Shown here: positions 11,601-35,208 of the stretch, piece by piece
Layout: every line of letters starts with the position of its first letter
How positions within the stretch are numbered: the stretch's first letter is position 1
From: Escherichia coli
GTDB lineage: Bacteria > Pseudomonadota > Gammaproteobacteria > Enterobacterales > Enterobacteriaceae
Length of the DNA: 64,000 nt
Reading direction: 5' to 3' (one strand)
NCBI RefSeq assembly: GCF_044324785.1
Contig: NZ_CP172127.1
Translations under genes and position numbers: made by a program
The notes under the pieces: generated by a model
Databases searched by the model: none
What the model was told of the DNA's origin: nothing
Seen by the model: only the letters and a program-made list of their open reading frames with translations

Positions 11601-12364
11601 CACAAAGAGGACGAAAAGATTCGCTGCAGCCACGTAAAATTATCTCCAGCCCCACATGGTCTGGTCTGGAAAGCGATCACGTCTCCTATAACGCGGGATA
11701 CACCAACGTTCATGAGTTAATTCCGTGGCGCACGCTGTCGGGACGCCAGCAGCTTTATCAGGATCATCCGTGGATGCGTGCCTTTGGTGAAAGCCTGGTG
11801 GCTTATCGCCCGCCTATCGACACCCGTAGCGTCAGTGAAATGCGCCAGATACCGCCAAACGGCTTCCCAGAAAAAGCACTTAACTTCCTGACGCCGCATC
11901 AGAAATGGGGCATTCACTCAACCTACAGTGAAAACCTGCTAATGCTGACGCTCTCTCGCGGTGGACCGATTGTCTGGATTAGCGAAACCGATGCCCGTGA
12001 ACTGACCATTGTCGATAACGACTGGGTGGAAGTGTTTAACGCCAACGGCGCGCTGACTGCCCGCGCGGTGGTCAGCCAACGTGTACCGCCGGGTATGACC
12101 ATGATGTATCACGCCCAGGAACGCATTATGAATATTCCTGGTTCGGAAGTAACTGGCATGCGCGGCGGCATTCATAACTCGGTCACCCGCGTTTGTCCGA
12201 AACCAACGCATATGATTGGCGGTTACGCGCAGCTGGCCTGGGGCTTTAACTACTACGGCACCGTCGGCTCGAACCGCGACGAATTCATCATGATCCGCAA
12301 GATGAAGAACGTTAACTGGCTGGATGATGAAGGTCGCGATCAGGTACAGGAGGCGAAAAAATGA
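8640..12364 (+). pseudogene. narZ: respiratory nitrate reductase Z alpha subunit, reading frame broken near 11625
   Basis: NarZ/NarG-like protein in frame 0 from MSKLLDRFRYFKQKGETFADGHG to ...HLALHKEDEKIR, then continues in a different frame (...QPRKIISSPTWSGLESDHVSYNAGYTNVHELIPWRT... to stop at 12364); span is 3725 nt, not a multiple of 3. Confidence 0.75.
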
Positions 12365-16250: not shown

Positions 16251-16290
16251 AACCGTTGCCTGGTGCGCTTCTCTTATCAGGTCTACAACC

Positions 16291-16317
16291 GAGCTAACGT
16301 ATGCCGGATAAGGCGTT
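16291..16317. repeat. left half of a REP/palindromic unit split by the IS insertion
   Basis: GCCGGATAAGGCGTT...; joining both flanks with one copy of GTT restores GCCGGATAAGGCGTTTACGCCGCATCCGGC. Confidence 0.7.
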
Positions 16318-16841
16318 TGAACTGCACCCCAAATGTTGGACATAATCTGACATCTGAAGGTGCAGTTTATGAAACATTCATTTGAAGTAAAACTTGCCGC
16401 TGTAAATCATTACCTGGCTGGTCATGCAGGCATCATTTCTACGGCAAAACTCTTTCAACTTTCTCACACCAGCCTCTCACACTGGATTAATCTTTTTCTT
16501 CTTCACGGTCCTCGGGCACTGGATTGCAGACACAAGCGTAGCTATTCTCCTGAAGATAAACTTTGCGTGGTTCTTTATGCTCTCGGGCATTCTGAGTCTC
16601 TACCCCGGGTAGCTGCCCGGTTTAACATTCCCAGCCACAACACGGTTAAAAACTGGATAAAAGGCTACCGCAAATCTGGTAATGAGGCCTTTATCAGGCG
16701 CAGGAAGGAGAAAAGCATGACCCGTTCTGATGATACCCATGAAAACGAGGCAAACATGACGCCGGAAGAGATGAAGAATGAGCTGCGTTATCTTCGCGCA
16801 GAAAATGCATATCTGAAAGCCATGCAGGAGCATCTCCTGGA

Positions 16842-17749
<908 letters not shown>

Positions 17750-19997: not shown

Positions 19998-20243
19998 TTG
20001 AGAGTTACCGGTTTTGATATGGGTGTCGAATCCTTATACAAAACACGGGTAACTCTCATGCTTCATACTACCAATCCCGTTATCAAACACAAAGCCAGTT
20101 TGCTCAATCTGGCTGAAGAACTCAGCAACGTATCAAAAGCCTGTAAAATCATGGGCGTTTCGCGTGATACGTTTTATCGTTACCGCGAACTGGCCGATGA
20201 AGGCAGGGAAAGATTACGAAAGCCCGCTCCCTGCAAGGACTGA
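19998..20243 (+). pseudogene. transposase N-terminal HTH fragment (IS481/IS3-like), truncated
   Basis: 81-aa ORF ...[34 protein letters not shown] matches the GxSRxTxYxWxxRY HTH pattern; 3' end overlaps the H-repeat transposase. Confidence 0.3.
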
Positions 20244-21287
20244 CGCCAGGTAGTTTCTGTCCATGGCTGCTTTTCGCATCTTACGTCTTAACCCTGCCTT
20301 GAATACCTTATCATTCGTTAAAATATTAATAGCGATGTGCCGTATCCCTGAAAATAATTCTGCTGCATTTCCTCTTCTTATTTTGCAGTCGTCTTCATTC
20401 ATTACCACGTCCAGACGCCAGTGCAGCTTATTCTCCACGTGCCAGTGATTTCGGATCGCTGTGGCGAACTTCTCAGCGGTTAAATCAGCAGAACTGATGT
20501 AATATCTGACCGTCATTTCTGGCTCTTTCTTTTGTTCTGCTATTATGGACCGAAAGGAGACTGCCACGCATAATTTCTTCAGTCCTTTCCATTCAAACGT
20601 GAAATCAATAAGTTCATCAGGGACATCGCAAACAATATGAAGACGGATTTCTTCTCTGCCTTGACTTTTTTCACTAATTGCGTAACTGTCATGCTCTGGA
20701 TTATTTAATTCTTTCAGTGGGAATTTTTCCTCAAAGGCTTTATTAAGCCGCCCCTGATTTCCTTTTACAGCGAATAAATAATCACCGCCCTGTTTTTGTA
20801 TCTTCTCTGCGATATCTTTCTGGCAACCCATCGCATCAGTTGTGATAATTTTTCCTTTAATATCCAGCATGTTAAGAAGTTCAGGGATAGCTGTGATCTC
20901 ATTGGATTTCTTATCCGTCCTGATCTGTCCGATGACAAGACTGTGCATTGTTGAGAACGCACTAATGACATGAATCGCTCCCCTGCGGCGACTCTTGTCA
21001 TAAGAATGCCGGAGCGTTTTTCCATCAATTGCAATAACGTCTTTATCATCTGAAGAATGGCAGTCACGCATCCCGTTAATAAAGCACTCGTGAAATTTTA
21101 CAGGACTGATACAGGATACAACTCTGGCAATGGTATCGTGAACAGGAATACCATTTTCAAAATCACCATATTGCTTCAAAAAATCGAGATGTGTTTCCCC
21201 AAAATCCTCTATATCTTCCCAGCATTCTGCACCAGAAATAACGGCACAAATAGTCAACAGTAGAATATCCGACAATTTATGTTCCAC
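20214..21287 (-). CDS. ISAs1-family (H-repeat-associated) transposase; frame extends to ATG at 21350 but is interrupted by an in-frame TAG at 21291..21293
   Basis: 357-aa ORF (V/M)[35 protein letters not shown]... typical of Rhs-linked H-rpt ORF-H; upstream in-frame MELKKLMEHISIIPDYRQA-TAG-K. Confidence 0.8.
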
Positions 21288-21630
21288 TTTCTAGGCTTGT
21301 CTGTAATCGGGGATAATAGAAATATGTTCCATCAATTTTTTCAGTTCCATTTTGTTCTCCTTAATTATGTAAGGAGTATTTGATCATGTATACGCAATAA
21401 AAAACAGCTTTAGGTAATAAGGAATATCTCAATTTTTAAACATAAAATGCGAATTATTTAGTACAAAAAGTGAACTTCTGATGATCTTTCCCTGCCCATT
21501 GGGTTCATTAAGATCAAGAATAATGGGAATATGCTCAAGAAGACTTTGAATGTTCACCAGACGTCCTTTTCTAATATATTTAATTATTTGGCGATTAAAT
21601 TTTAATCAAATCAACAAGGTAAAACCAAGA

Positions 21631-21660
21631 TTAAAGTTGTGATGATAATCACAACTTTAA
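21631..21660. terminator. perfect 13-bp inverted repeat (TTAAAGTTGTGAT-GATA-ATCACAACTTTAA), candidate terminator downstream of the Rhs immunity gene
   Basis: seen directly; on the minus strand it is followed by TCTTGGTTTT. Confidence 0.4.
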
Positions 21661-21696
21661 TGATCTTCCCCTGATTCCTCCAGTCCTTTTATTTGG

Positions 21697-22071
21697 TTAC
21701 TCTAATGGTTTTATTAATTGTAAATTTTTAAATGTCATGCTTAATAAGCCATCAGAAAAATAAAGAAAAAATTTATATATCCTTTTGTTTTTTAATTTCT
21801 TTATATACCCATTACTTATATTACCTGACTTGTGATTATCGATTAACTCAGCAGAATCCATAGCGAACACTAAATCATCTACATCAGAAAATTCAACTAT
21901 CATTTTTTCCCTAATGTTCTCATTTTTATAAATGTCAATAAATAACGTCATGTTAAAATGAGATTCTTTGAATGTCGTTTTTACTTCTAACAAAACCCCA
22001 TCATGCCAGTCAATTGAACTCACAATGTCAAAATCGCTCATTATATAATCTCCATTATCCGTTTTAATCAT
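21697..22071 (-). CDS. ydcD: Rhs-associated immunity protein (YdcD-like), about 124 aa
   Basis: [31 protein letters not shown]...; ATG (22071..22069) overlaps the Rhs stop TGA (22070..22068) as ATGA; no signal peptide; AT-rich. Confidence 0.7.
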
Positions 22072-25000
22072 GGAGTAACAACGTTTGCAGGTATTGACCA
22101 CCAAAGAGGTGGTGCAAGTGAAGGTATAAATCGAATCACTCTATATATAACATACCCTGCGCCAATTGTAGCACCAGTTGCAAGAGCCGCATCAGTAGTT
22201 GATAGCCCGGAGGTTTTGCATGACAGATCTTTACTTGGTTCTGGCTCGAAACCATATTTTTTTGCACATTTCTTAATGCTATTTGGTGCTGATGAGTAAT
22301 CCTCACCATGGGACATACCTCCAAATTCCCCCATTACACCACTCCCATTTTTACACTCCCAATGCAAATGTCTTCCGTCACCAACAGCATCGCCATCTAT
22401 TCGGATTCGACAACCTTTACCACAGTCCTTCCATTTTCCTGAAGTATGAGCTAATCCCAATGGATCAATCCATTGCACAGGATTGTTCATAACATAACTG
22501 TACGGGTTTATTCCCCCCGCCAGCCCTATCGGATCCTGGATGATATACCGCCCCTGCAACGGATCGTAGTACCGGTGACGGTTATAATACAGCCCCGACT
22601 CCTCATCGTGTTGCTGCCCAGGCAGACGGTAGGGCTGGTGCAGGTGATGCGGGTTTTCCTCATTCAGCAGGTTTCCCCACTCATCATACTCCCCGCTCCA
22701 CGCCGTATTGCCGTCTTCGCTGATGAGCGCCAGCGGCAGGCCCCGGTGGTCGCAGTGGTAAAGATGAACTTTTCGCGCCGGTGTGTATTCCGGCTCCACC
22801 TGTCTGGCCAGTTGCTCTACCGTCAGCCCGCACTGCGCAAGCCACGCCCGGCTTTCACTGCTCACGCGGTCTGCCCGGATTTCCCCCTCCAGCCTGTCCA
22901 GCATCCTCACAAGTTCTGCCGGGAACACCACACCGTGTCCGTTCTCGCTCCCTTCCTGCTGCAACTTCTCCGCCAGGCTCCGCCGCTGCGTTTTCTCCCG
23001 CTCGCCGTTGTCTGTTTCGATGCGGATGAGTGGTGTGAAGCTTCCCGGCTCGTATACCGTCTGGATACGTGTGCTGTCGGTCTGCACCGTCGTCAGGTGG
23101 TCGCCGTCCCAGCCGTACCACGTCACCTCCGGTTTACGCGACAGCGACATCCACCCCGTCAGGTCACGTACCCGCCGCCACACCCGTTTACCCGTCCGGC
23201 GGCCCAGCGGGTCGTAGAGGTAGCGGCTCTCCACCTGCGGCTCGCCATGCTGTATCCGCGTGTAGAACACCAGGCGGTGCTGGCTGTCGTAGTGGTAGTG
23301 GTGGGTCCGCTCGTCGTCCGTCCGTATCACACCCGCCGGGATGCGGTCCGTCTTCTCCGTCAGCCTGCCGTATTCATCGTGGCGGTAGACATAGTGCGCA
23401 TCCTCCGCGATGCGGTTATCCGGCCACACTGTGAGTGTACTGTCCGGGTGCAGCTCCGGGTCCGGCAGCCGGTTGCCCGCCGGGTCCGTGGCATACGGGA
23501 TGCGGATGTCCAGGTCCGGTGCGAGGGTGCGCACACTCTCCAGCCTGCCCGTGGCGCTGTAGCCGTATTCCCGCGTCTGTCGCGGGCCGCTGATGCGCAC
23601 CAGGTCGCCGTTGTCATTCCACCCGTAGTCACGGTCATACACCAGGCTGTTCAGGTGCTGGCTCTGTAACTGGCCTGCGGGGGTGTATGTGCTGGTCAGT
23701 TCGTATGCGGCATTACTGCCTGCCATGCTGCCGAAGCTGCGCACCGTCTCCCGGTGCAGCCTGTCCCGCGTATACTCGACCCGCGGCGTCCCGCCCAGCT
23801 TCATTCCCGCCAGGTAACCGCTGCCATACGTCAGCCACTCCACCGGCGGCAGGCTGTCCGGCGTGACGCGGTTTGCCAGCCCCTGCTCGTTGTATGCGTG
23901 TTTCGTCTCATGCTGCCACAGCAGTTCCCCCGTCTCCGGGTTCTCCACCGTCTGGCGTTCGCCGGTCAGGCGGCCTTTATCGTCATAGCCGTAGTGGACC
24001 GCCACACGGTGGCCTTCACTGATATGGCTGAGGGTGGTTAACCACCCGTGCTCATCATACTGCCACTGCTCTGCCGGGTCGCCGTTCACCGTCCGGTGCG
24101 TGATGCGGTCTGCTTCATCGTAGTACCACTGCGTGACCTGCCCCTCATCCTAGCTGCGGATGAGCTGCCCTGTGGCGCTGTACCGGTAACGCTGTGTCCT
24201 GCCATCAAAGCCGCGCTGCTCCGTCAGGCGGTCCAGCACATCGTAGGTAAATTCACTCCGGCTGCCGTTCTCGTTGGTCAGCACGGTGATGCGCCCGGCA
24301 GCGTCATACCCCATGCTGCGCGTCAGCCCGCCTTCCGTCACACTCACCGGACGCCCGCGTTTATCATATGCGATGGTGCTGCGTTTACCGTCCGGTGATA
24401 TCGTTGCTGTCAGGTCGCCTGCGGCACTGTACTCATAACGGGTTTCACGCCCCTGCGCATCCTTCTGCCCTGTCAGCCTGCCGCGGCTGTCATAGAGACT
24501 ATAAATACTGAGACCTTCCTCCCGGTGAACGGCGATTTGTTGACCGTACCGGTCATACTCATACCGCGTCATGTACCCCGAGCAGTCCGTGAAGGCCCGA
24601 AGCTGACCGTACCGGTTTCGCGTTATTCTCCGCGTTACCCCGATTCCGTCTTCCACCGCGCCGGGCAGGCTACTGCGGGGGGAGTCATAAAACCAGCGTG
24701 TAATGTTACCGTTGCGCGAGGTCTCTTCTGCCAGTCGGCCCTGACGGTCATATTTCCGGCTGCTGCGTAAACCATCCGGATATGTCACTGAAGTCAGTTG
24801 CAACTGGCTGTTATAGCCATACCACACCGTCCTGCCGTCCGGCAGTATCACTGAAGTCAGCTTTCCAGACGCCATATGCAGCCGGTTCACCGTCCGCCGC
24901 CCCGCCGCATCCGTCTGCGCCTTCAGCCTCCCCGCCTCATCATACTCGCTGCGGGTGATGCTCCCGTCCGCATGCTCCTTCTTCACCACCCGCTTCAGAC

Positions 25001-26242
25001 CACCTTCGCCTTCCGTGTACAGCACCTCCCGCCGGTTCAGGCTGTCCGTGATGGTCACACGGTCCTGCCCGTACTCAAAGCGGTAGTCCAGTCCCTCCTG
25101 GTTGACCTGCTCCGTCACCCGCCCGGTATCATCATACCGGTAGCGGCTCTCCGGCCTCCCTGCATAATGGCGCGCCACCATCCGCCCGGCGTGCTCCGCA
25201 TCATAAGTAAACCCGCGCACCTGCGTCCCGCTGCGGTCATACACCGCCCGCAGTTCTCCGCTGGCCGTGTACGTGTAGCGCGCCAGCGGCGCAGTCGGCT
25301 GTTCATCCGGGTATGCCGGGTCGTGTGTCAGCCACACCGCCTCCAGACGGATACCGTTATCCGTGCCGTATTCTGTACCGGCGGGCAGCGTGTCGGGGAA
25401 AGCTGAAGAAGAGGAAGCAGAACGGGGACCTGCAGGGGAAGATAAAGACGTGGCGCGCTGTTTACGGAGGGCTTCCGCCCGCTGCGCCTGTGTGGTCAGC
25501 GCCAGATGAAAACGGCGGCCCGCGCCGTCCGTCACCCCCGTCACCGCGCCCGCCGCTTCCCCCTCTGCCGCCCGGTGGAAGGCCAGCGTCCGCCCGAAGC
25601 CGTCCACCACGCCCGTCAGCACCCGGTATGCGGGCGGCTCCGGCGGCAGCACCTCGTCCGCCTCCGGCACCCGCTCCGGCCAGCCGAGTATCAGCCACTG
25701 CCCGGTTGTGCTGGCAGCCATCATATAGATGTGTGGACTCAGACGGACCGCTTCCGGCAACGCCCGCCAGAGCCGCGCAAGCGGGTGGCCTTTGTGCTGT
25801 TTCAGCACCCCGCCCCGCGCCAGCCAGAACGACTCACTGCGGCTGTAACTTATCTCGCCGGGAAACAGGGGTTCAAAGTGAATACTTCTGCCGCCACTGT
25901 CGTTGAGTATCAGGCCTTCATCGCGTATCTGTAAGCGGATATCGAAGGGGGCTTTCCAGCCGGGACCAAACACCCCACCGGCGCGGGTGTCCTGGTCCGG
26001 TAGCTGCTGTAAGCGCGAGAAAGAATAAACGGCAGCGGGCCGGGCAGCGCAAGGTCCGTCTCGCCCGGCAGCACCTTCGCACCCAGTAGCGGGTTCAGCG
26101 GGTTAGCATAGGTAATCCCTCCCGGACACACCGAGCAGGCCACTCCCGTCGGCGCACCTATCAGCCCCCCTGCTGAACCCTGCACAATATCCAGTCCCTT
26201 GCGGGTCATGTCACCCTGCCGCGCCGCCGGTTTTCCGCTCAT
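22068..26242 (-). pseudogene. rhsE: Rhs family protein, full-length copy inactivated by a 1-nt deletion (about 25968) and an in-frame TAG (24150..24152); C-terminal tail differs from the upstream Rhs
   Basis: Three collinear minus ORFs (25910..26242, 24150..25973, 22068..24089) together align along the intact Rhs at 26781..31043; core ends ...[28 protein letters not shown] then a 127-aa unique tail. Confidence 0.8.
22480..24089. repeat. Rhs core segment nearly identical to 27286..28895 (direct repeat, constant offset 4806 bp)
   Basis: Identical encoded protein over about 380 aa ([28 protein letters not shown]...KLQQEGSE) and identical antisense ORFs at 22473..23669 and 27903..28475. Confidence 0.85.
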
Positions 26243-26318
26243 GGTTTATTCCTTTTCTTTTACCTTACATGTCCATACAAATAGTTACCTATACTGTCTT
26301 TGAATATTGCCCTACCAT

Positions 26319-26768
26319 TTAAAGCCCACCTATTTCTTGCGACAGAAAAGGGATTTCTTTTTTAATCCAATCTACCATTTCATTTTTTTCAAAACATACG
26401 TTAATGCCATTCACACTTCCACATTCACCAAAACCATCAAAATAAATTTCACATTTATTATTTTTATTCGAAACAATGTCAATCCCCCATCTTATATCGT
26501 TATTCTCCTCCTTCCTGAAATACTTCATTTGCAATAAATCAATTATCTCACCAGCATAAAAATCGCTAACCCCATTCACCACCACTTTATGTTTGTATAT
26601 TCTCTTGAGACCTTCCTTGCTAAGCGGGGTTAAGGTGGTAACATATGCTGGAAGATTAATTATTTCTATCGTTTTCACACTATCTATTCCACACAATTCA
26701 TTCACTCGCCCCATCCCCAATACCGAAGCAGAAAATAGAGACAATAAAACCATCAAATATTTCATCAT
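26319..26768 (-). CDS. candidate immunity protein for the Rhs HExxH tail; predicted exported (N-terminal signal peptide), 149 aa
   Basis: Starts 12 bp after the Rhs stop; MMKYLMVLLSLFSASVLG hydrophobic N-terminus; four Cys (C26, C116, C123, C131); AT-rich. Confidence 0.7.
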   Translation of the reverse strand: MMKYLMVLLSLFSASVLGMGRVNELCGIDSVKTIEIINLPAYVTTLTPLSKEGLKRIYKHKVVVNGVSDFYAGEIIDLLQMKYFRKEENNDIRWGIDIVSNKNNKCEIYFDGFGECGSVNGINVCFEKNEMVDWIKKEIPFLSQEIGGL

Positions 26769-26780
26769 AAAAAAATCTCA

Positions 26781-29700
26781 CTATTCTGGCGTGCCATTTA
26801 TTGTTGCCGTCTGTGTTGGTGTATTCACACGATAATACACTCCATTATATGCTGTTCTGGTACACTCACCTAAAGTTTTCGCCGCATGCTGTTCAATTAA
26901 AGTGATAACTCTCGCCTCTTCTTTATTTTTATATTGTTCATCCGCACGTCTCACAAGCCCCATATAGCCATCCTTATCAATAAGATATAAGTGCGCATGA
27001 GCAAACTCATGCCCCAAACCTAATGCAGGTGATTGTGATTTCGATTTTAAATCAGTTGAACAAAATAAAGCCGCCTTACCATTCCAATATATAGTCATTT
27101 TATCCGGGTCAAATCTAACGTCGGTTTCATCAATATACTCTATCTTTATGGTTTCTTCAGAGCTTGATAAAAAATCTATAGCTTCTTTCATTCGTGAATC
27201 TTGTTTTAAATACTCAACAGCCTGATTAAAATCACTTGGATCATCGTTAACATGGAATTTTAAACCCAAAGAATCTATAAACCGAACAGGGTTTAATGGA
27301 TATTTATACAGATTCCATTCACCTCTTAGCCCGATTGGATCCTGGGTGATATACCTCCCCTGTAGCGGGTCATAGTACCGGTTCCGGTTATAGTACAGTC
27401 CTGATTCCTCATCATGCTGCTGCCCCGGCAGACGGTATGGCTGGTGCAGGTGATGCGGGTTCTCCTCATTCAGCAGGTTGCCCCATTCATCATATTCCCC
27501 ACGCCATTCCGTTGCTCCTTCGGTACTGATGAGCGCCAGCGGCAGCCCCCGGTGGTCACAGTGATAAAGATGAATTTTTCGCTCAGGTAAATAAACCGGC
27601 TCTATCTGTGCCGCCAGCCGCTCCACCGTCAGCCCGCACTGTGCCAGCCACGCCCGGCTTTCACTGCTCACGCGGTCTGCCCGGATTTCCCCCTCCAGCC
27701 TGTCCAGCATCCTCACAAGTTCTGCCGGGAACACCACACCGTAGCCGTCCTCGCTTCCTTCCTGCTGCAACTTCTCCGCCAGGCTCCGCCGCTGCGTTTT
27801 CTCCCGCTCGCCGTTGTCTGTTTCGATGCGGATGAGTGGTGTGAAGCTTCCCGGCTCGTATACCGTCTGGATACGTGTGCTGTCGGTCTGCACCGTCGTC
27901 AGGTGGTCGCCGTCCCAGCCGTACCACGTCACCTCCGGTTTACGCGACAGCGACATCCACCCCGTCAGGTCACGTACCCGCCGCCACACCCGTTTACCCG
28001 TCCGGCGGCCCAGCGGGTCGTAGAGGTAGCGGCTCTCCACCTGCGGCTCGCCATGCTGTATCCGCGTGTAGAACACCAGGCGGTGCTGGCTGTCGTAGTG
28101 GTAGTGGTGGGTCCGCTCGTCGTCCGTCCGTATCACACCCGCCGGGATGCGGTCCGTCTTCTCCGTCAGCCTGCCGTATTCATCGTGGCGGTAGACATAG
28201 TGCGCATCCTCCGCGATGCGGTTATCCGGCCACACTGTGAGTGTACTGTCCGGGTGCAGCTCCGGGTCCGGCAGCCGGTTGCCCGCCGGGTCCGTGGCAT
28301 ACGGGATGCGGATGTCCAGGTCCGGTGCGAGGGTGCGCACACTCTCCAGCCTGCCCGTGGCGCTGTAGCCGTATTCCCGCGTCTGTCGCGGGCCGCTGAT
28401 GCGCACCAGGTCGCCGTTGTCATTCCACCCGTAGTCACGGTCATACACCAGGCTGTTCAGGTGCTGGCTCTGTAACTGGCCTGCGGGGGTGTATGTGCTG
28501 GTCAGTTCGTATGCGGCATTACTGCCTGCCATGCTGCCGAAGCTGCGCACCGTCTCCCGGTGCAGCCTGTCCCGCGTATACTCGACCCGCGGCGTCCCGC
28601 CCAGCTTCATGCCCGCCAGGTAACCGCTGCCATACGTCAGCCACTCCACCGGCGGCAGGCTGTCCGGCGTGACGCGGTTTGCCAGCCCCTGCTCGTTGTA
28701 TGCGTGTTTCGTCTCATGCTGCCACAGCAGTTCCCCCGTCTCCGGGTTCTCCACCGTCTGGCGTTCGCCGGTCAGGCGGCCTTTATCGTCATAGCCGTAG
28801 TGGACCGCCACACGGTGGCCTTCACTGATATGGCTGAGGGTGGTTAACCACCCGTGCTCATCATACTGCCACTGCTCTGCCGGGTCGCCGTTCACCGTCC
28901 GGTGCGTGATGCGGTCTGCTTCATCGTAGTACCAGAGGATGACAAGCCCCTCATCTTCACTCTGCGTGAGTTTTCCGGTCAGGTCATAATGATAACGTTG
29001 CGTCCGCCCGTCAAAGCCGCGCTGCTGTACCAGGCGGTCCAGCGCATCGTAGCTGAAGTCGCTGTGACTGCCGTTCTCGTTGGTCAGGCTGATGACACGT
29101 CCGGCAGCATCGTACTCCATACTGCGCGTCAGCCCGCCCTGCGTGGTGCTGACCGCCTTTCCCCACGCATCGTACTGTGTCTCGCTCCGGTTGCCGTCCG
29201 GGGTGATAACGGCAGTCAGGTCGCCTGCGGCGTTGTACTCATACTGCGTTTCACGGCCCTGTGCGTCTTTCACCGAGGTTAACCGGCCACGGTTGTCATA
29301 GCGGCGGTAACGGCTGATACCTTCCTCACGGTGGACCGCCGTCATCTGACCAAAGCGGTCGTATTCATAACGGGTCTGGTAGCCCGAGCAGTCGGTGAAC
29401 GCCAGCAACTGCCCGTAGCGGCTCCAGGTCATCTGCCGGGTGCTGCCCGTCGCATCCGTTGTCGTCGCCGGTAATTCACTGTGCGGATTATCATAAGCAT
29501 ACCGGATGACGTCCCCACTGCGCGATGTCTCCGTTACCAGCCTGCCCGGTTCATCATATGCCCGGCGGCTCTCCAGCCCGTCCGGGGACACCACTGCCGT
29601 CACCTGGTTCCCGTCGTTATAGTAAAATTTCGTCTCCCGCCCGTCCGGTGTGGTGATGTCCGTGATATCGCCTGACACCACATTCAGACCGTACTCTGTC

Positions 29701-31043
29701 CGCCGTCCCGCCGCGTCCGTCTGCGCCGTAAGCCGCCCCACCGGGTCATACCCGCTGCGCGTGACGCTGCCGTCCGCCAGTTCTTTTTTCACCACCCGTT
29801 TCAGCCCGCCTTCACCTTCTGTATGCAGCACCTCACGCCGGTTCAGGCTGTCCGTGACGGTGATGCGGTCCTGCTCATACTGGTAGCGGTAACTCAGGCC
29901 TGCCGGGTTCAGCTGCTCCACCACCCGCCCCGCATCGTCGTAGCGGTAGCGCATCTCCGGCCTTCCCGCGTAACGGTGCGCCACCATCCGGCCCGGGTGC
30001 TGCGCGTCATACGTGAAAGCGCGCACCTGCGTATTGCTGCGGTCATATACCGCCAGCAGTTCACCGGCTTCCGTATACGTGTACCGCGCCAGTGGCGCAC
30101 CGGGCAGATTCTCCGGGTATGCCGGGTCGTACATCAGCCACACCGCTGAAAGACGGATACCCCTGTCGGGGCCGTATTCCGTACCGGGCAGTGTGTCGGG
30201 GAAAGCTGAGTCTGAAAGAGGGCGGGGGGTGTCAGGGGAAAATAAGGAAGCGGTGTGCTGTTTACGGGCCTCTTCCGCCCGCTGCGCCTGCGTGGTCAGC
30301 ACCAGACGGAACTCCCGCCCGGCACCGTCCGTCACGCCGGTGATTTCCCCGGCCAGGTCACCGGCGGCCTCACGCCGGTACGCCAGCGTCCGCCCGAAGC
30401 GGTCTGCCAGCCCGGTAAGCACCCGGTACGGCGGCAGCGGCGCTGGCAGTACGTCCTCAGCACCCGGCACCCGCTCTGACCACCCCAGTATCCACCACGG
30501 CCCCTGTGCGCTGTTGGTCGCCAGGTAAAGATGCGGGCTTAACCGGATATCCGGCGGCAGCGCCCCCCACAGCCGTGCCAGCGTGTGGCCGTCCGGCTGC
30601 GCTGCCTTACCACCGCGCACCAGCCACATTGACTCGCTGCGGCTGTACACCGCCTCACCCGGCAGCAGCGGCTCAAAGTGAATGCTCCGCCCGCCGTTGT
30701 CGTTGAGTATCAGTCCGTCATCACGTAGCTGTAAGCGGATATCAGAAGGCGCTTTCCAGCCGGGGCCGAAAACGCCCACCGGCGCAGGCGTCTTCGTCCG
30801 GTAGCTGCTGTAGGTGCGGGAGAGAATGAACGGCAGCGGGCCGGGCAGCGCAAGGTCCGTCTCGCCGGGCAGCACCTTCGCCCCCAGCAGCGGATTTACC
30901 GGGTTGCCCGAAGTCATCCCGCCCGGACACACCGAGCACGCCACGCCGGTGGGCGCGCCAATTCTTACACCTGCCGAACCCTGGACAATGGGACCGCCAT
31001 ACTGAGTCATATCTCCCTGACGCGCCGCTGGTTTTCCGCTCAT
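26781..31043 (-). CDS. Rhs family protein with conserved PAAR-like N-terminus, YD-repeat core and C-terminal tail containing an HExxH motif, 1420 aa
   Basis: [42 protein letters not shown]...; YD repeats; core ends ...[27 protein letters not shown]; tail 26781..27260 contains [10 protein letters not shown] (codons at 26997..27011). Confidence 0.9.
27286..28895. repeat. Rhs core segment nearly identical to 22480..24089
   Basis: see paired repeat. Confidence 0.85.
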
Positions 31044-31109: not shown

Positions 31110-33218
31110 TCAGTACTCTCTCATATCCGGCGTATCCTGCTTTTCATCAGGGGTCTTCGGTGGGGATTTCGAGGCTGCACAGTTCCAGTTAATCAACAGT
31201 GAGTCACCATTAACCTGCTCCTTACCCTGCAAATGAATTTTTGTGCCGTTGAGAAAAATTTGTCCGTCCTTAGTCAGCACCAGCCTTGCCTTACCACAGC
31301 AGAGTTCCAGATGCTCACCGGCGGAGTAAATCGCGGTCTGCCCGGTATCATCCTTTTTCGTTTTACCAACGGTGAAGGTAACGTTATTTCCGACTTTGAC
31401 GTCATAACCCAGCCCGACCCTCAACGATTTATGCAAACCGATCTGCGAGGACTGCATCAGGGCCACCGAGGTGTTCATAATGCCACCTACCGTCGTCTGA
31501 TACGCCACGCCCACAGTCAGCGCACGCACAAGTCCAATCGTTTCCACCTGAACAGAGCCCACTTTAATGATCTGGTTACTGCCCACCGTCTCTATCTGGT
31601 TAACACCCACCGTCTGTATCTGATTGTTGGTAACCGCAATCATCTGATTGTTGCCAATGGTCTCAGCATGGTTGTTTATCACATCCGTGGTGCGGTTATT
31701 CAGCACCTCGGTGTTCATATTCTTCTGCGCGTGGATGTAGACCTGTTCTTTCCCTGTCGCATCGTCAAACTTCAGTTCATTAAACCCGCTGCCCTTATAG
31801 GTTTTCGAACGAATGGTCATCTGCGTCTTTGTTCCCGGCAGGCTGCCGGGGGTGCGGTTTTCCTGGTGGTAGGTACGCCCCATAATAATCGGCTGGTCCG
31901 GATCGCCGTTGAGGAAGTCCACAATGACTTCCTGACCCACACGCGGTATCGCCAGGTTGCCAAAGCTGGTGCCTGCCCACGCCTGTGCCACACGGATCCA
32001 GCATGAACTGTCCTGGTTTGACGGGTTATAGCGGTCCCAGTTAAATTTCACCCGCACGCGGCCATGTTCATCACAGAAGATTTCCTCGCCTGCCGGTCCT
32101 GTCACGACGGCGCTCTGCGGGCCATCCACCAGCGGTTTCAGCAACGGCTGTGGTCGCCATGTTCTGTCTGCCGGTATTACCGCAAAGTGGTTATTCAGTG
32201 TGGTACCCGAACCACTGCGTCCCGGCACCGCCTGCGGCTGCTCGCCGTGCAGATCGCTCGCCACCACCTGCCATTCACGGTTCAGGTTCGCCTGCGGATG
32301 CCCCGTCAGCGCAATTCGCCGTCCCGGCCATATCTCCGGCGAACGGCTTGTTCCGCGCGCCACTTCTGCGTTGTTTCGCCAGCCATCCATCTGCCAGCGG
32401 GCAAAGTTCTGCCCGTGGGCACCCTTGAAACGTCCGGGGTAGTCATACACTTCATACTGTGTGCGCTGGTAATCCTGGTGCTGGCCTTCCTGATCAAAAC
32501 GCCCTGCCCAGCCGGGTCGTTTAAAGGTGTAGTCTTTGGTCACCACGGAAGATGGGCGGATTTGTGCGCTGTAGCGGAACTGGCTGATGCAGAGGGTGCT
32601 CACCTCGGTACGGGTGTTCGGATTCCAGGGGATCTCAAAGGACTCCGGCAGATAACGCACGGTGTCGCACAGGACCAGGCTCTGGTCGGTACTTTTTTGC
32701 GCGTGCTCCTCATAAAAGAAGATGCCTTCCTCCGCCGCCATCCGGCACAGGAAATCGTAATCGGTCTCACCGTACTGGACACAAAATTCACGGGAAGGAT
32801 GCGGCTCGCTGAACAGCGGACTCCACTCGGTCACCCCGTTTTCTTTCAGGATCGTCACGAGGATGCTTTCGATGTCCTCATTCTGGAAGATACGGAAGTT
32901 CTGGCGCAGCCCTGTGCGCCACAGCGGTGGGCACACCTTCATGCTGTACAGCATCTGGTTTTTGTCGTTCTCCCCCAGTTCAAACCAGGTCACCACACCT
33001 TTCACCCGGCGCTGTACGTCATCGCCCTGCCATACCGTCAGGTAGGCCATTTTGTCCAGCACCTGCGCAAATTCAAGGGAAAGAAACTGCTGACTGACCA
33101 GAGAAAGGTCGAGGGAAAAAAGTGAAGAGAGTGACTGGTTCAGATGAAAGGAGACCACCGCAAACGCGTCCGGTGGCAGGCCGTCCACTTCCAGCGTGAA
33201 ACGTAATCCGGTTGACAT
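31110..33218 (-). CDS. vgrG: VgrG (type VI secretion spike protein), about 702 aa
   Basis: MSTGLRFTLEVDGLPPDAFAVVSFHLNQSLSSLFSLDLSLVS... with GGAGG RBS; ends 67 bp before the Rhs start; track ORF extends to 33323 but the RBS supports 33218. Confidence 0.88.
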   Translation of the reverse strand: MSTGLRFTLEVDGLPPDAFAVVSFHLNQSLSSLFSLDLSLVSQQFLSLEFAQVLDKMAYLTVWQGDDVQRRVKGVVTWFELGENDKNQMLYSMKVCPPLWRTGLRQNFRIFQNEDIESILVTILKENGVTEWSPLFSEPHPSREFCVQYGETDYDFLCRMAAEEGIFFYEEHAQKSTDQSLVLCDTVRYLPESFEIPWNPNTRTEVSTLCISQFRYSAQIRPSSVVTKDYTFKRPGWAGRFDQEGQHQDYQRTQYEVYDYPGRFKGAHGQNFARWQMDGWRNNAEVARGTSRSPEIWPGRRIALTGHPQANLNREWQVVASDLHGEQPQAVPGRSGSGTTLNNHFAVIPADRTWRPQPLLKPLVDGPQSAVVTGPAGEEIFCDEHGRVRVKFNWDRYNPSNQDSSCWIRVAQAWAGTSFGNLAIPRVGQEVIVDFLNGDPDQPIIMGRTYHQENRTPGSLPGTKTQMTIRSKTYKGSGFNELKFDDATGKEQVYIHAQKNMNTEVLNNRTTDVINNHAETIGNNQMIAVTNNQIQTVGVNQIETVGSNQIIKVGSVQVETIGLVRALTVGVAYQTTVGGIMNTSVALMQSSQIGLHKSLRVGLGYDVKVGNNVTFTVGKTKKDDTGQTAIYSAGEHLELCCGKARLVLTKDGQIFLNGTKIHLQGKEQVNGDSLLINWNCAASKSPPKTPDEKQDTPDMREY

Positions 33219-34036
33219 AGCAACCTCCGTGAAAATGAATAATAATCCGCACATATTGCATGTACAACATGTCGGGCGGATGAGATAAGCGAGTCGACAT
33301 CTGGCGTTACCGGGGAATATCAAAAAATGTCATGGTTATGTGATGATTTAGTCTGGGATTTTACTTCAGAGAAACGGGTGTCTGTTTAGTCAACAAAATA
33401 ATCACAAACGCAACGGATGGGTTCTCGACGTTATTCACGACAGGCTCGTACATTACAGCGAGTAATAAAAACCTGATATGCAAAGTCAAACCAATATTCA
33501 TAATGTCTTTTTATTCACAACAATAAATAATTCAATAACAATCATTGAAATGAATGATGGTTTGTATAAGGAATATACGCTGCCGCCCCACCCTGATAAC
33601 ATGATCTGCACATTGCCATCTTAACGTCGTTAAACACTGGCTTAATAGTGGATATTTAAAATTAGGAATTTATTAAATTCACCTGATGAATATCATAAGC
33701 AAATAGCATAGAAAATAATGACAACTCCCCCGAGGGGACCATTTCCAAAGCACTGCACCACCACCTGGTGCCCGGATGATCTTGCTTCAGTGGTAAGAGT
33801 ACCTGATTCATTGTTCCCAAAATGGTGTTTTCCCCTGCCCCTCCAATAATGTGCAGCTCTCACGTGATAATCTATTGATTAGGTTATATTAAGAATCAAT
33901 ATTTGAAATACATCCATTTTCTTGAATAAATCAACATGTTTATTTATCAATTGCTGTTTTAGCTCTGACTCATCAAGCTCTCCATATTTGTCCTACAGAT
34001 AATCGCGAATAAATACAGAGAACGCCATTTATCCTT

Positions 34037-34249
34037 TTAGCATACCTGCCGGATATTTTTATTTGTATTAATATTAATTGCATCTCCAACTCCGAGCATA
34101 TCCATCATTAAAAACATTTTGAGATTATAGAATGCCTGTAATAACAACTGAAACATCAGCACAATGTGAATAGTTAGTTTCTTTTCAGAGGAAATGAAAT
34201 AGACAAGCTGAATGAAAGGGAGAGTGATATAAATTAAAAAACATAACAT
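34037..34249 (-). CDS. yncH: small 70-aa ORF at the position of yncH (DUF5445); could also be noncoding
   Basis: Size and position downstream of yncG match K-12 yncH; sequence is hydrophobic and AT-rich, so coding status is uncertain. Confidence 0.35.
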   Translation of the reverse strand: MLCFLIYITLPFIQLVYFISSEKKLTIHIVLMFQLLLQAFYNLKMFLMMDMLGVGDAININTNKNIRQVC

Positions 34250-34324
34250 GAATCTAATTAATTACGTTCATCATTGTGGATAAAGTTACTGAATAATAAA
34301 TAACATAATCTTCTGGTATCCCAC

Positions 34325-34942
34325 TCAAATAATTCCATTCCTTTTTAATACTTCTTGTAATTTCGGTAACTGACATACAGCATCAGCAATCGCACTGATA
34401 TTCGTGGCATTATCCTGAAACCATTCATGCCCAGGCCCCCATGTGCGCATAGTGCAAAGATAACAGTCCACCAGCGTTAGTTGCTCACCAAACGCATAAG
34501 GTTCAGCGGTCAATTGTGAATTCAGCCATATATAAAGTGATTTGCGATATTCAATAACATTCTTCTTTAACTGTTCAGGTGCGTCAGGAGCCCAACGCTC
34601 AGGGTAATCGGCGAAAGTGAATGTTGGATAGACATTAGCAACCAGCCAGACCAATAGCCGTTGAAACTGCTGACGTTCGGCGCGCCCAACCGGTGGCGCA
34701 AGGTCCGGGCGACGATCGAGAACCATCAATGCAATCGCCGCTGTCTCCGTCATAATCTCGTCATTTTCCAATGCCAGTGTCGGAACCTGACACAACGGGT
34801 TCAGGGTTTTCAATAACTCGCGTGAAGCTCCCTCGTGGTCAAAACCACTGACATCAACGAACTGATAAGGAATATCAGCCAGTGTTAGCATGAGCTCACT
34901 GATTGTAGAGCCCCATTCGGGTACGCCATACACCTTAATCAT
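34325..34942 (-). CDS. yncG: glutathione S-transferase homolog, 205 aa
   Basis: MIKVYGVPEWGSTISELMLTLADIPYQFVDV... Confidence 0.88.
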   Translation of the reverse strand: MIKVYGVPEWGSTISELMLTLADIPYQFVDVSGFDHEGASRELLKTLNPLCQVPTLALENDEIMTETAAIALMVLDRRPDLAPPVGRAERQQFQRLLVWLVANVYPTFTFADYPERWAPDAPEQLKKNVIEYRKSLYIWLNSQLTAEPYAFGEQLTLVDCYLCTMRTWGPGHEWFQDNATNISAIADAVCQLPKLQEVLKRNGII

Positions 34943-35208
34943 ATGCCCCTCACAATCTTTTAAAGATTAAGTGTAGGACAGTACACAGGTTAACCAGCAA
35001 AAGGATTTGTCATTTTTTCGTCAGTTGTATTAATCCCCTTCAGGATTGTAAGGGGATGTTTTGCATCGTTTATCGATAACGGGTAGGATGCTGCGCCGAT
35101 AGTTTTATACCCATAAAGAATAATGGTGATAACTATCATCGCCAGGATGAATAAACATTGTTCATGGCAACTTATATGACTTTTTCATTAAAGCAATCAG
35201 GGAGAGCA

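Follow-up and report, generated by a model that had tools for sequence, protein, structure and literature searches.

Gene content of the island

Within the 64,000-nucleotide stretch of Escherichia coli DNA analysed here (the window), we identified an Rhs island with the gene order vgrG, Rhs1, imm1, Rhs2, imm2 and an ISAs1-family transposase, in which Rhs2 is a pseudogene. The island is flanked by yncH and ydcC, and is the complete form of the site occupied by rhsE in K-12. Its genes are as follows.

31110..33218, minus strand: vgrG, T6SS spike protein, 702 aa, intact, first gene of the island; frame open from M to stop
26781..31043, minus strand: Rhs1, intact Rhs core protein, 1420 aa, with toxin tip CT1; single ORF
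26319..26768, minus strand: imm1, presumed Rhs1 immunity gene, 149 aa; ORF
22068..26242, minus strand: Rhs2, full-length Rhs pseudogene, 4175 nt, split over three ORFs
21697..22041, minus strand: imm2, presumed CT2 immunity gene, 114 aa, intact; GGAG 5' of its ATG
20214..21350, minus strand: transposase of the ISAs1 family (ydcC, 'H-repeat'), interrupted by an in-frame stop (translation YRQA*KVEH); distal boundary of the Rhs element

The intact vgrG adjoins Rhs1, but not Rhs2. Its orthologue in a near relative, E. coli N3, is annotated as 'type VI secretion system tip protein VgrG', and the N3 counterpart of ydcC as 'ISAs1 family transposase; internal stop'; the T6SS-1 cluster is present in N3, with a frameshifted tssA. 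Rhs1 scored 2753.6 bits against the NCBIfam RHS_core model (cutoff 2000). Its CT1 tip contains an HExxH-like motif (GHEFAH), with a weak best family match (Peptidase_M91, E 0.11), and family searches with imm1, imm2 and CT1 returned no significant match. The imm1 protein of N3 is identical to that of the window, and a homologue in strain 100181 has been named 'RHS element protein dsORF-h1'.

Two lesions in a full-length Rhs gene

Rhs2 combines three minus-strand ORFs (25910..26242, 24150..25973 and 22068..24089), and starts from an ATG of its own (26242) with the N-terminus complete, its first residues reading as in the first-pass annotation. We distinguished the following features within it, together with the Rhs1 partner of its repeated tract.

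25973..25976, minus strand: lesion 1, a GGGG run (GGGGG in orthologues); 1-nt deletion causing a frameshift after PAPVG, within the DUF6531 region
24153..26242, minus strand: 5' part, of a divergent core type
24150..24152, minus strand: lesion 2, an amber TAG (Glu codon GAG or GAA in orthologues)
22951..24128, minus strand: 1178-nt tract with one mismatch to Rhs1; gene-conversion tract and potential crossover site
27757..28934, minus strand: Rhs1 partner of the 1178-nt tract
22068..24089, minus strand: distal 673-aa ORF, C-terminal half of the Rhs core plus toxin tip; mechanical ORF
22068..22451, minus strand: CT2, toxin tip of 127 aa that follows the cleavage motif and has a Tox-WTIP domain at its end

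The lesions were called against orthologues in strains 1190, PCN033, 19KM1831, 100181 and TUM14771; Rhs1, as a reference for the lesions, is a paralogue about 70% identical to Rhs2 over the first 2.1 kb. At the first lesion the window reads GGTGGGGTG, as opposed to GGTGGGGGTG in the true orthologues. The second gives IRS*DEG in Rhs2, against SEDEG in Rhs1. The orthologues retain the run of five G and the GAG codon, and both lesions are derived in the lineage of the window.

Repair in silico of these two positions (one G added, T changed to G) produced a 4176-nt ORF of 1391 aa, with the terminal stop, at 22068, as its sole stop. The ORFs and the repair thus bear out the first-pass annotation, which had described a second Rhs, complete with an N-terminus of its own, 3' of the first immunity gene, broken by exactly two lesions and otherwise in frame to 22068. 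Its placing of an in-frame TAG at 24150..24152 in place of Glu agrees with the orthologues, and its 1-nt deletion after PAPVG is likewise real, although the position that it gave, about 25968, lies 5-8 nt away from the GGGG run.

The repaired protein scored 2543.5 bits on the NCBIfam RHS_core equivalog model (NF041261) over profile positions 1-1261, above the cutoff of 2000. Unrepaired Rhs2 has no single uninterrupted frame, and its largest fragment scored 1176.9 bits on the same model, below the cutoff; Rhs2 is therefore a pseudogene of the RHS element core protein family, and not a functional member of it. Its resemblance to Rhs genes is far above chance, with a nucleotide identity of 70-100% over 4 kb besides the profile score. 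It has the YD/RHS repeats and Rhs-associated core (TIGR01643, E 4.6e-47; TIGR03696, E 3.2e-28), with ten Pfam RHS_repeat matches of independent E <= 0.003 (eight with E <= 0.001), and the core-end motif PxxxxDPxGL. The N-terminus contains a literal PAAR (residues 5-8) as well as DUF6531 (residues 47-123); the Pfam PAAR_motif model found no match in a scan of residues 1-734.

The same lesions recur outside the window. The exact 110-aa frameshift product was found on 21 public contigs, and both lesions were present in 10 of the 10 independent contigs that we read (seven draft genomes and three metagenome assemblies), at 99.8-100% identity. Both are also found in N3, even though 210 differences in 20.5 kb separate that strain from the window, and the RefSeq annotation of the N3 gene reads 'RHS element core protein; frameshifted; internal stop'.

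Mosaic structure and gene conversion

Comparison of its parts with other Rhs genes indicates that Rhs2 is a recombinant mosaic, consisting of a 5' region of 2.1 kb of the T6SS-1 type, a 3' core homogenised with Rhs1, and a toxin tip and immunity gene native to the rhsE site. The 5' part is about 70% identical to Rhs1 and 84-98% identical (per 300-column bin) to intact Rhs genes of T6SS-1 clusters, intact relatives of this core type being found in TUM14771 and 100181. Its variable sites comprise 0 concerted and 482-494 paralogue-specific positions.

The 1178-nt tract consists of exact runs of 323 and 854 nt, counted, as were all identical runs between paralogues, on MAFFT alignments. Its variable sites comprise 25-27 concerted and 0 paralogue-specific positions, a pattern that bears the clear signature expected of gene conversion. 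Each of five tandem genomes of the allele group possesses its own run of perfect identity, of 0.5-1.2 kb, and 100181 was the sole tandem genome examined to lack one. Similarity of Rhs2 to other Rhs genes stops at 22451. We identified CT2 and imm2 in 405 of 5426 genomes; in the inspected strains without a tandem, they are attached to a single Rhs at the rhsE locus.

Independent decay in sister lineages

The downstream copy carries different lesions in different lineages. The window and N3 share delG and GAG>TAG; in PCN033 the single lesion is +C, which is joined in 19KM1831 by TAT>TAG and in strain 1190 by CAA>TAA and TAT>TAG. In sister lineages the same downstream copy was knocked out by other lesions and then gained more, and the loss of Rhs2 is one instance of a decay that this copy has undergone repeatedly. 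All five lesions, in the window and sister lineages together, lie upstream of the identical tracts, a distribution that is only weakly non-random (a rough estimate of about 0.07, with the region upstream of the tracts set at about 2200 of 3750 core nt).

The suggestion made in the first-pass annotation that inactivation was recent is partly sustained: the undamaged tip and immunity gene fit a fairly recent decay, but the allele is lineage-fixed and often sampled. Of the derived codon changes in the 5' half of Rhs2 in the lineage of the window, 7 are nonsynonymous and 6 synonymous, numbers too small to demonstrate relaxed selection.

The toxin tip, its immunity gene and a possible crossover

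The last 40 residues of CT2 matched Pfam Tox-WTIP (PF15654; E 3.1e-13, 50.1 bits, model positions 40-79 of 79), and the stretch from DPLGL to this domain gave no family match. A protein search with the CT2 tip recovered fragments of at most 230 aa only, as full-length Rhs proteins disappear into 90%-identity clusters whose representatives bear other tips; annotated genomes were examined for intact CT2 genes in its place. The last 164 aa of Rhs2 are identical to three intact RhsE proteins, and the imm2 protein is identical to WP_001279013.1 of N3, 19KM1831 and PCN033. CT2 and imm2 are undamaged, and protein-identical to functional-looking copies on intact genes elsewhere.

Both lesions lie upstream of the 1178-nt identical tract, so a single crossover would yield an intact Rhs1::CT2 gene. 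Performed in silico, this crossover removes 4806 bp, including CT1, imm1 and both lesions, and leaves a 1389-aa Rhs1::CT2 with 0 internal stops, which matches intact RhsE(CT2) proteins found in nature at 94-96% identity from end to end. A candidate product is found at the T6SS-1 locus of N3, in which a 5' end of the Rhs1 type is joined to the toxin tip that follows Rhs2 in 1190; this is the structure expected from such a crossover, and could instead be the ancestral state. In Salmonella, recombination of main rhs with an orphan rhs-CT over 522 bp at 95% identity activates the orphan toxin, and required a prior duplication (PMC3967940).

The crossover would also remove imm1, exposing recombinants to the Rhs1 of their siblings.

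Comparison with known Rhs systems

The orphan rhs-CT/rhsI modules of Salmonella (Poole et al. 2011, PMC3150448; Koskiniemi et al. 2014, PMC3967940) resemble Rhs2 in having a silent tip and an intact immunity gene 3' of an expressed rhs. Like them, Rhs2 lies 3' of a main rhs gene and its immunity gene (imm1), is untranslatable as a full Rhs and shares with the main gene a homology tract capable of fusion (1178 nt at about 100% here, 522 bp at 95% in Salmonella), in which one crossover gives an expressed chimera with the orphan toxin (in silico here). In contrast, the orphan of Salmonella has no start codon or N-terminal export region and is only a 3' fragment, whereas Rhs2 is whole, with an ATG and an N-terminus that contains the literal PAAR, is silenced by two point lesions only, and has a 5' half from a different core subfamily. 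Rhs2 is orphan-like in its working, but is a decayed full-length paralogue.

The rhsE pseudogene of K-12 (b1456, with ydcD, yncI and ydcC) occupies the same chromosomal site as the window island. K-12 DNA of yncG-yncH matches window positions 35189..33286 at 98%, and ydcC matches 21494..20204 at 96%. The K-12 remnant begins at the equivalent of window position 24041, and is close in extent to the distal 673-aa ORF. It differs from the window in that vgrG and the 5' core are deleted, that there is no second Rhs, and that the toxin tip and immunity gene are others, similarity stopping at window position 22521.

In strain 100181, a T6SS-1 tandem (vgrG, Rhs, dsORF-h1, Rhs, immunity gene, ISAs1) shows the same gene order as the window, with a related imm1 (26 of 150 residues differ), a spacer of equal length (76 nt) ahead of its second Rhs, which has the core type of Rhs2. 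However, both of its Rhs copies are intact, the second being 84-97% identical over the 5' half, and the tandem lies at another locus, beside yafV and fadE, with a different toxin tip.

Finally, single RhsE(CT2) genes were found at the rhsE locus of PCN033 (WP_047938343.1), 2012C-4502 and DETEC-S792, with an identical C-terminal 164 aa and immunity protein. These are lone intact genes with a 5' half of the Rhs1 type, unlike Rhs2; in these strains, it is often vgrG that is broken instead.

Interpretation of the locus

Taking the evidence as a whole, we consider it probable (roughly 0.8) that Rhs2 (22068..26242), the second of two Rhs toxin genes of a tandem vgrG-rhs island located at the rhsE site, is a genuine pseudogene fixed in its lineage. 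The second copy would be dispensable for secretion because Rhs1 holds the expressed position behind vgrG, and would consequently decay. The divergent 5' half, at about 70% identity, would not be repairable by conversion from Rhs1, while the 3' core may be continually overwritten. imm2 may still be useful, as it would give protection from the CT2 toxin, which about 7% of complete E. coli genomes carry, and the silent CT2 cassette might be brought into use by one crossover, by analogy with the Salmonella orphan modules. These reservoir and immunity roles of CT2 and imm2 are putative.

A more far-reaching interpretation, which we regard as unlikely, is that the tandem array is an actively maintained toxin-switching system, in which conversion keeps the tract of about 1.2 kb just 3' of all lesions, so that CT2 stays ready for recombination, and in which a 4.8-kb unit is mobile. 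This unit, comprising the conserved core, CT1, imm1 and the divergent 5' core, would shuttle between the T6SS-1 cluster and the rhsE site, excising at direct repeats and re-integrating in another Rhs core. Such a system, if real, would account for the complementary structures at both loci in N3 compared with 1190 and PCN033.

Compatible with a decayed tandem copy, though doubtful in itself, is the internal expression of CT2 and imm2 as a pair resembling a type II toxin-antitoxin system, from a promoter just 5' of the DPxGL motif, such that the 3' end would be selected regardless of the lesions. Starsta et al. 2020 (PMC7043789) found internal P2 promoters of this kind in Salmonella rhs genes and report similar sequences in E. 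coli; the conservation of CT2 and imm2 is perfect, and we identified a -10-like element (TATTAT/TATAAC) at the homologous position. However, the consensus promoter scan was empty at this position, and when the Salmonella P2 promoter was aligned to Rhs1 and Rhs2 its -35 element was not conserved (CACGAT versus TTGACG), so we do not claim a P2 promoter here. Across 21500..26900, consensus promoter and terminator counts fell within about 1.5 sd of those in shuffled sequence.

It is decidedly improbable that the distal 673-aa ORF is translated from an internal start, as the first-pass annotation had proposed, and yields a free core-tail protein that functions independently. The frame is long and uninterrupted, the toxin tip that it encodes is undamaged, and the K-12 remnant is of nearly equal extent, but the K-12 counterpart is annotated as a pseudogene, and the openness of the frame follows from its having recently been part of a larger gene and being renewed by gene conversion from Rhs1. 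The GTG at 24089 is merely the first start codon past a stop; no Shine-Dalgarno sequence precedes it, and no promoter-like site was found on the minus strand between 24090 and 24400. The fragment covers RHS_core positions 718-1261, scoring about 1177 bits (under the cutoff); its N-terminal region is missing, as is half of the Rhs core. Given the structure of Rhs proteins, such a fragment could not load onto VgrG or close the cage.

The case that Rhs2 is really intact, and that its lesions are sequencing or assembly errors in repeat-rich DNA, is weaker still. The first lesion falls in a G homopolymer, a typical site of error, a perfect repeat of 1.2 kb lies close by, and an older sequence of EDL933 had shown as split the Rhs genes at the rhsE site that are fused in a newer one (PMC7216683). 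Against this, reads map uniquely to the divergent part that contains both lesions (about 70% identity to Rhs1), and the occurrence of the frameshift product on 21 contigs, and of both lesions in all ten contigs read and in the separate strain N3, would require a systematic error shared by all assemblies, which a G>T substitution cannot be. The assembly error that the first-pass annotation had allowed for thus fails on the comparison with other E. coli genomes at this locus that it had itself proposed.

Least credible of all is the decoding of full-length Rhs2 by ribosomal -1 slippage on the G run combined with amber readthrough: slippage of tRNA-Gly by -1 on G-GGG would bring back the original frame exactly, but the 5-bp 'hairpin' at the site is within chance expectation, the amber stop would need readthrough too, and the unrelated, more numerous lesions of sister lineages form a pattern of decay. 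We know of no programmed frameshift site that consists of a 4-G run without a stimulatory element, and programmed -1 frameshifting was rejected on the shortness of the run, the remaining amber codon and the unrelated sister-lineage lesions.

As a decayed second toxin gene, Rhs2 is a real but ordinary pseudogene, explicable by known Rhs biology. Its importance is small apart from annotation, in which it should carry a pseudogene label, as RefSeq gives the N3 gene, and its three ORFs should not be taken for separate proteins. The locus nevertheless illustrates cleanly, in a natural setting, how the downstream copy of tandem Rhs arrays decays repeatedly and independently, how concerted evolution is limited to a conserved 3' core, and how a silent toxin/immunity cassette could be reactivated by one crossover. 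It also makes clear why assemblies from short reads are broken in this region.

The draft and metagenome contigs retrieved in this study were only 3.6-4.2 kb in length, and ended at or near the repeated tract.

Organisation of the locus

The window contains two Rhs genes behind a single vgrG, each Rhs followed by a presumed immunity gene:

31110..33218 (-), vgrG, intact
26781..31043 (-), Rhs1, the upstream Rhs copy, 1420 aa, intact
26319..26768 (-), imm1, small ORF, presumed immunity gene for CT1, the Rhs1 toxin tip
22068..26242 (-), Rhs2, the second Rhs, split into 25910..26242, 24150..25973 and 22068..24089
21697..22041 (-), imm2, small ORF, presumed immunity gene for CT2, the Rhs2 toxin tip
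20214..21350 (-), ISAs1-family/ydcC transposase ("H-repeat") marking where the Rhs element ends, with an in-frame stop (YRQA*KVEH), annotated likewise in strain N3

Both flanks match K-12, through yncG and yncH at one end and ydcC at the other, so the locus represents the K-12 rhsE site in its complete form; in K-12 itself, the beginning of vgrG runs across a deletion straight into the Rhs core, at a point corresponding to window 24041. Among complete genomes the closest is that of E. coli N3 (NZ_CP031609), a separate strain with 210 differences over 20.5 kb.

Rhs2 is a pseudogene with two lesions

The first-pass annotation had described a second Rhs with its own N-terminus, inactivated by only two lesions, and we confirmed both points, including the start sequence. 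The Rhs2 frame shifts after PAPVG, and further on reads IRS*DEG in place of SEDEG in Rhs1. The first lesion shortens a G5 run by one G (window GGTGGGGTG at 25973..25976, versus GGTGGGGGTG in orthologues), a real deletion that had been placed 5-8 nt away, and the second is GAG>TAG at 24150..24152. Repairing only these two in silico opened the whole frame, giving a 1391-aa ORF with no internal stops, which scored 2543.5 bits against NCBIfam RHS_core (cutoff 2000 bits) and also contained YD repeats, DUF6531 and the Rhs-associated core domain. Rhs2 is thus a real Rhs pseudogene.

We rejected a sequencing or assembly artefact, a scenario in which the true frame would be intact. The same gene is labelled "frameshifted; internal stop" in the RefSeq annotation of N3, an exact match to the 110-aa frameshift product was found on 21 public contigs, and both lesions were present in all 10 contigs that we read (7 NCBI draft genomes and 3 ENA metagenome assemblies), at 99.8-100% identity to window ~27,900..24,000. 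Both lesions also fall in a part of Rhs2 with no more than about 70% identity to Rhs1, and therefore cannot have been created by repeat collapse. The contigs read measure just 3.6-4.2 kb, most of them ending at or close to the 1.2-kb tract that Rhs1 and Rhs2 have in common, so short-read assemblies systematically break up the tandem array at this repeat.

Expression of the 673-aa distal ORF (22068..24089) from an internal start had also been proposed. The GTG at 24089 is merely the first start codon past a stop, and we found neither a promoter-like site upstream of this ORF nor a Shine-Dalgarno (SD) sequence before the GTG. Its product would span RHS_core positions 718-1261 only, and the remnant of almost equal extent in K-12 carries a pseudogene annotation. 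Other internal expression may be possible, as from the promoter near DPxGL that expresses the toxin tip and immunity gene in Salmonella (PMC7043789); the window Rhs does not conserve that promoter's -35 element.

Mosaic structure and gene conversion

Identity of Rhs2 to Rhs1 along the gene
Rhs2 nt 1-2100: about 70%
Window 24128..22951 (Rhs1 28934..27757), 1178 nt: identical bar one mismatch
From there to about 22520: about 80%
Toxin tip: unrelated to the Rhs1 tip

The 5' half of Rhs2 is of the core type of the T6SS-1 cluster, adjoining yafV and fadE, and has intact relatives directly behind vgrG in TUM14771 and as the second copy in strain 100181. Within it, a patch of ~300 nt (25500..25800, -) in the window and N3 is only 73-83% identical to 19KM1831, 1190 and PCN033, and 92-97% identical to the intact TUM14771 gene (overlapping 300-nt bins), an additional recombination mosaic.

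The 3' end consists of CT2 and imm2, a module found in 405 of 5426 complete E. coli genomes. CT2 comprises 127 aa after the cleavage motif and ends in a Pfam Tox-WTIP domain (E 3e-13), and the imm2 protein is identical to WP_001279013.1. In the inspected strains without a tandem (a Rhs1-type and a second copy in one array), the module is part of a single Rhs at the same site. That single gene has an open frame in PCN033, 2012C-4502 and DETEC-S792 and a frameshift in 1190 and XJ6.1; over its last 164 residues Rhs2 is identical to the three intact proteins.

CT1-imm1 homologues occur in 1083 of the 5426 complete genomes, one imm1 homologue being named "RHS element protein dsORF-h1". CT1 (26781..27330) carries GHEFAH, an HExxH-like motif, and weakly matches Peptidase_M91 (E 0.11), so is possibly a metallopeptidase toxin.

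Judging from site patterns, the tandem bears the signature of intragenomic conversion restricted to the conserved 3' core. Comparing the window with 19KM1831 and with PCN033, we counted 25-27 concerted sites (both paralogues of one genome differing jointly from both paralogues of the other) and 0 paralogue-specific sites in the identical tract, and 0 concerted and 482-494 paralogue-specific sites in the 5' 2.1 kb. Each of the five tandem genomes of the allele group has its own perfect-identity run between copies, of 500-1034 nt, and the tract varies between these genomes despite identity within each. The longest such run in 100181 is only 146 nt.

Recurrent decay across lineages

A Rhs2-type 5' half with at least 95% identity follows imm1 in about 35 complete genomes, most of which have it in the T6SS-1 cluster.

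Lesions found in the second Rhs copy, by strain
Window and N3: delG, GAG>TAG
PCN033: +C (window-equivalent 24683)
19KM1831: +C, TAT>TAG
1190: +C, CAA>TAA, TAT>TAG
100181: none

Each lineage keeps the ancestral state at the lesion sites of the other, so the second copy was intact in the common ancestor, and the downstream copy was inactivated at least twice before decaying further. The inactivation, previously called recent, is so in a relative sense, although the allele is already fixed in a widely sampled lineage.

We additionally noted that vgrG is often the damaged partner at rhsE and T6SS-1 loci (records L003, L004, L006, L009, L010 and L012). It is frameshifted in 19KM1831, at the rhsE site in 1190 and PCN033 and in PCN033 also at the T6SS-1 cluster, and is truncated by ISAs1 in 2012C-4502 and DETEC-S792. 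With vgrG broken in some strains and Rhs in others, the vgrG-rhs island so seems to be eroding in many lineages along different routes.

Crossover and cassette exchange

Both Rhs2 lesions lie upstream of the identical tract, the TAG by 22 nt. An in-silico crossover within the tract removes 4806 bp, comprising CT1, imm1 and the damaged 5' half, and leaves an intact 1389-aa gene whose product matches natural RhsE(CT2) proteins at 94-96% identity from end to end. At the T6SS-1 locus of N3, the first 3.3 kb of the Rhs are 98-100% identical to window Rhs1, and beyond lies the toxin tip that strain 1190 has after its second copy; CT1-imm1 is confined to the rhsE site in N3 and 19KM1831. These complementary structures are consistent with a deletion or fusion at one locus and the gain of a cassette at the other, in either direction. 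Such a crossover has experimental precedent in Salmonella, where a main rhs recombines with an orphan rhs-CT through a shared stretch of 522 bp (95% identity), following a duplication that keeps the main immunity gene (PMC3967940).

The best reading of Rhs2 is that of a downstream paralogue in decay, whose present behaviour resembles that of an orphan toxin-immunity cassette; that the cassettes form a switching or hopping system under active maintenance seems unlikely. A pseudogene such as Rhs2 is ordinary for Rhs loci, and it is already flagged in RefSeq.

Other observations

Rhs1, intact in the window, is frameshifted in N3 by an extra TTTT at the equivalent of window ~30243 (L001 8075-8078, the N3 record). 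The N3 T6SS-1-locus Rhs (L013 26488-30276) has a frame change at the same place, which suggests interlocus conversion or a shared N3 assembly problem.

A 16-nt deletion relative to N3, at ~11626, splits narZ (nitrate reductase Z alpha subunit) into two overlapping ORFs (8517..11720 and 11549..12364, +), so narZ is probably a pseudogene in the window strain. A 1464-nt segment between yddE and nhoA (16286..17749) is missing in N3; its ORFs 16360..16890 and 16995..17717 look like a candidate two-part transposase of an IS3-family insertion sequence. The sole Rfam match in the window is a SECIS_3 selenocysteine insertion element (974..1032, -; 84 bits), which we take, from K-12 gene order, to lie in fdnG (formate dehydrogenase-N).
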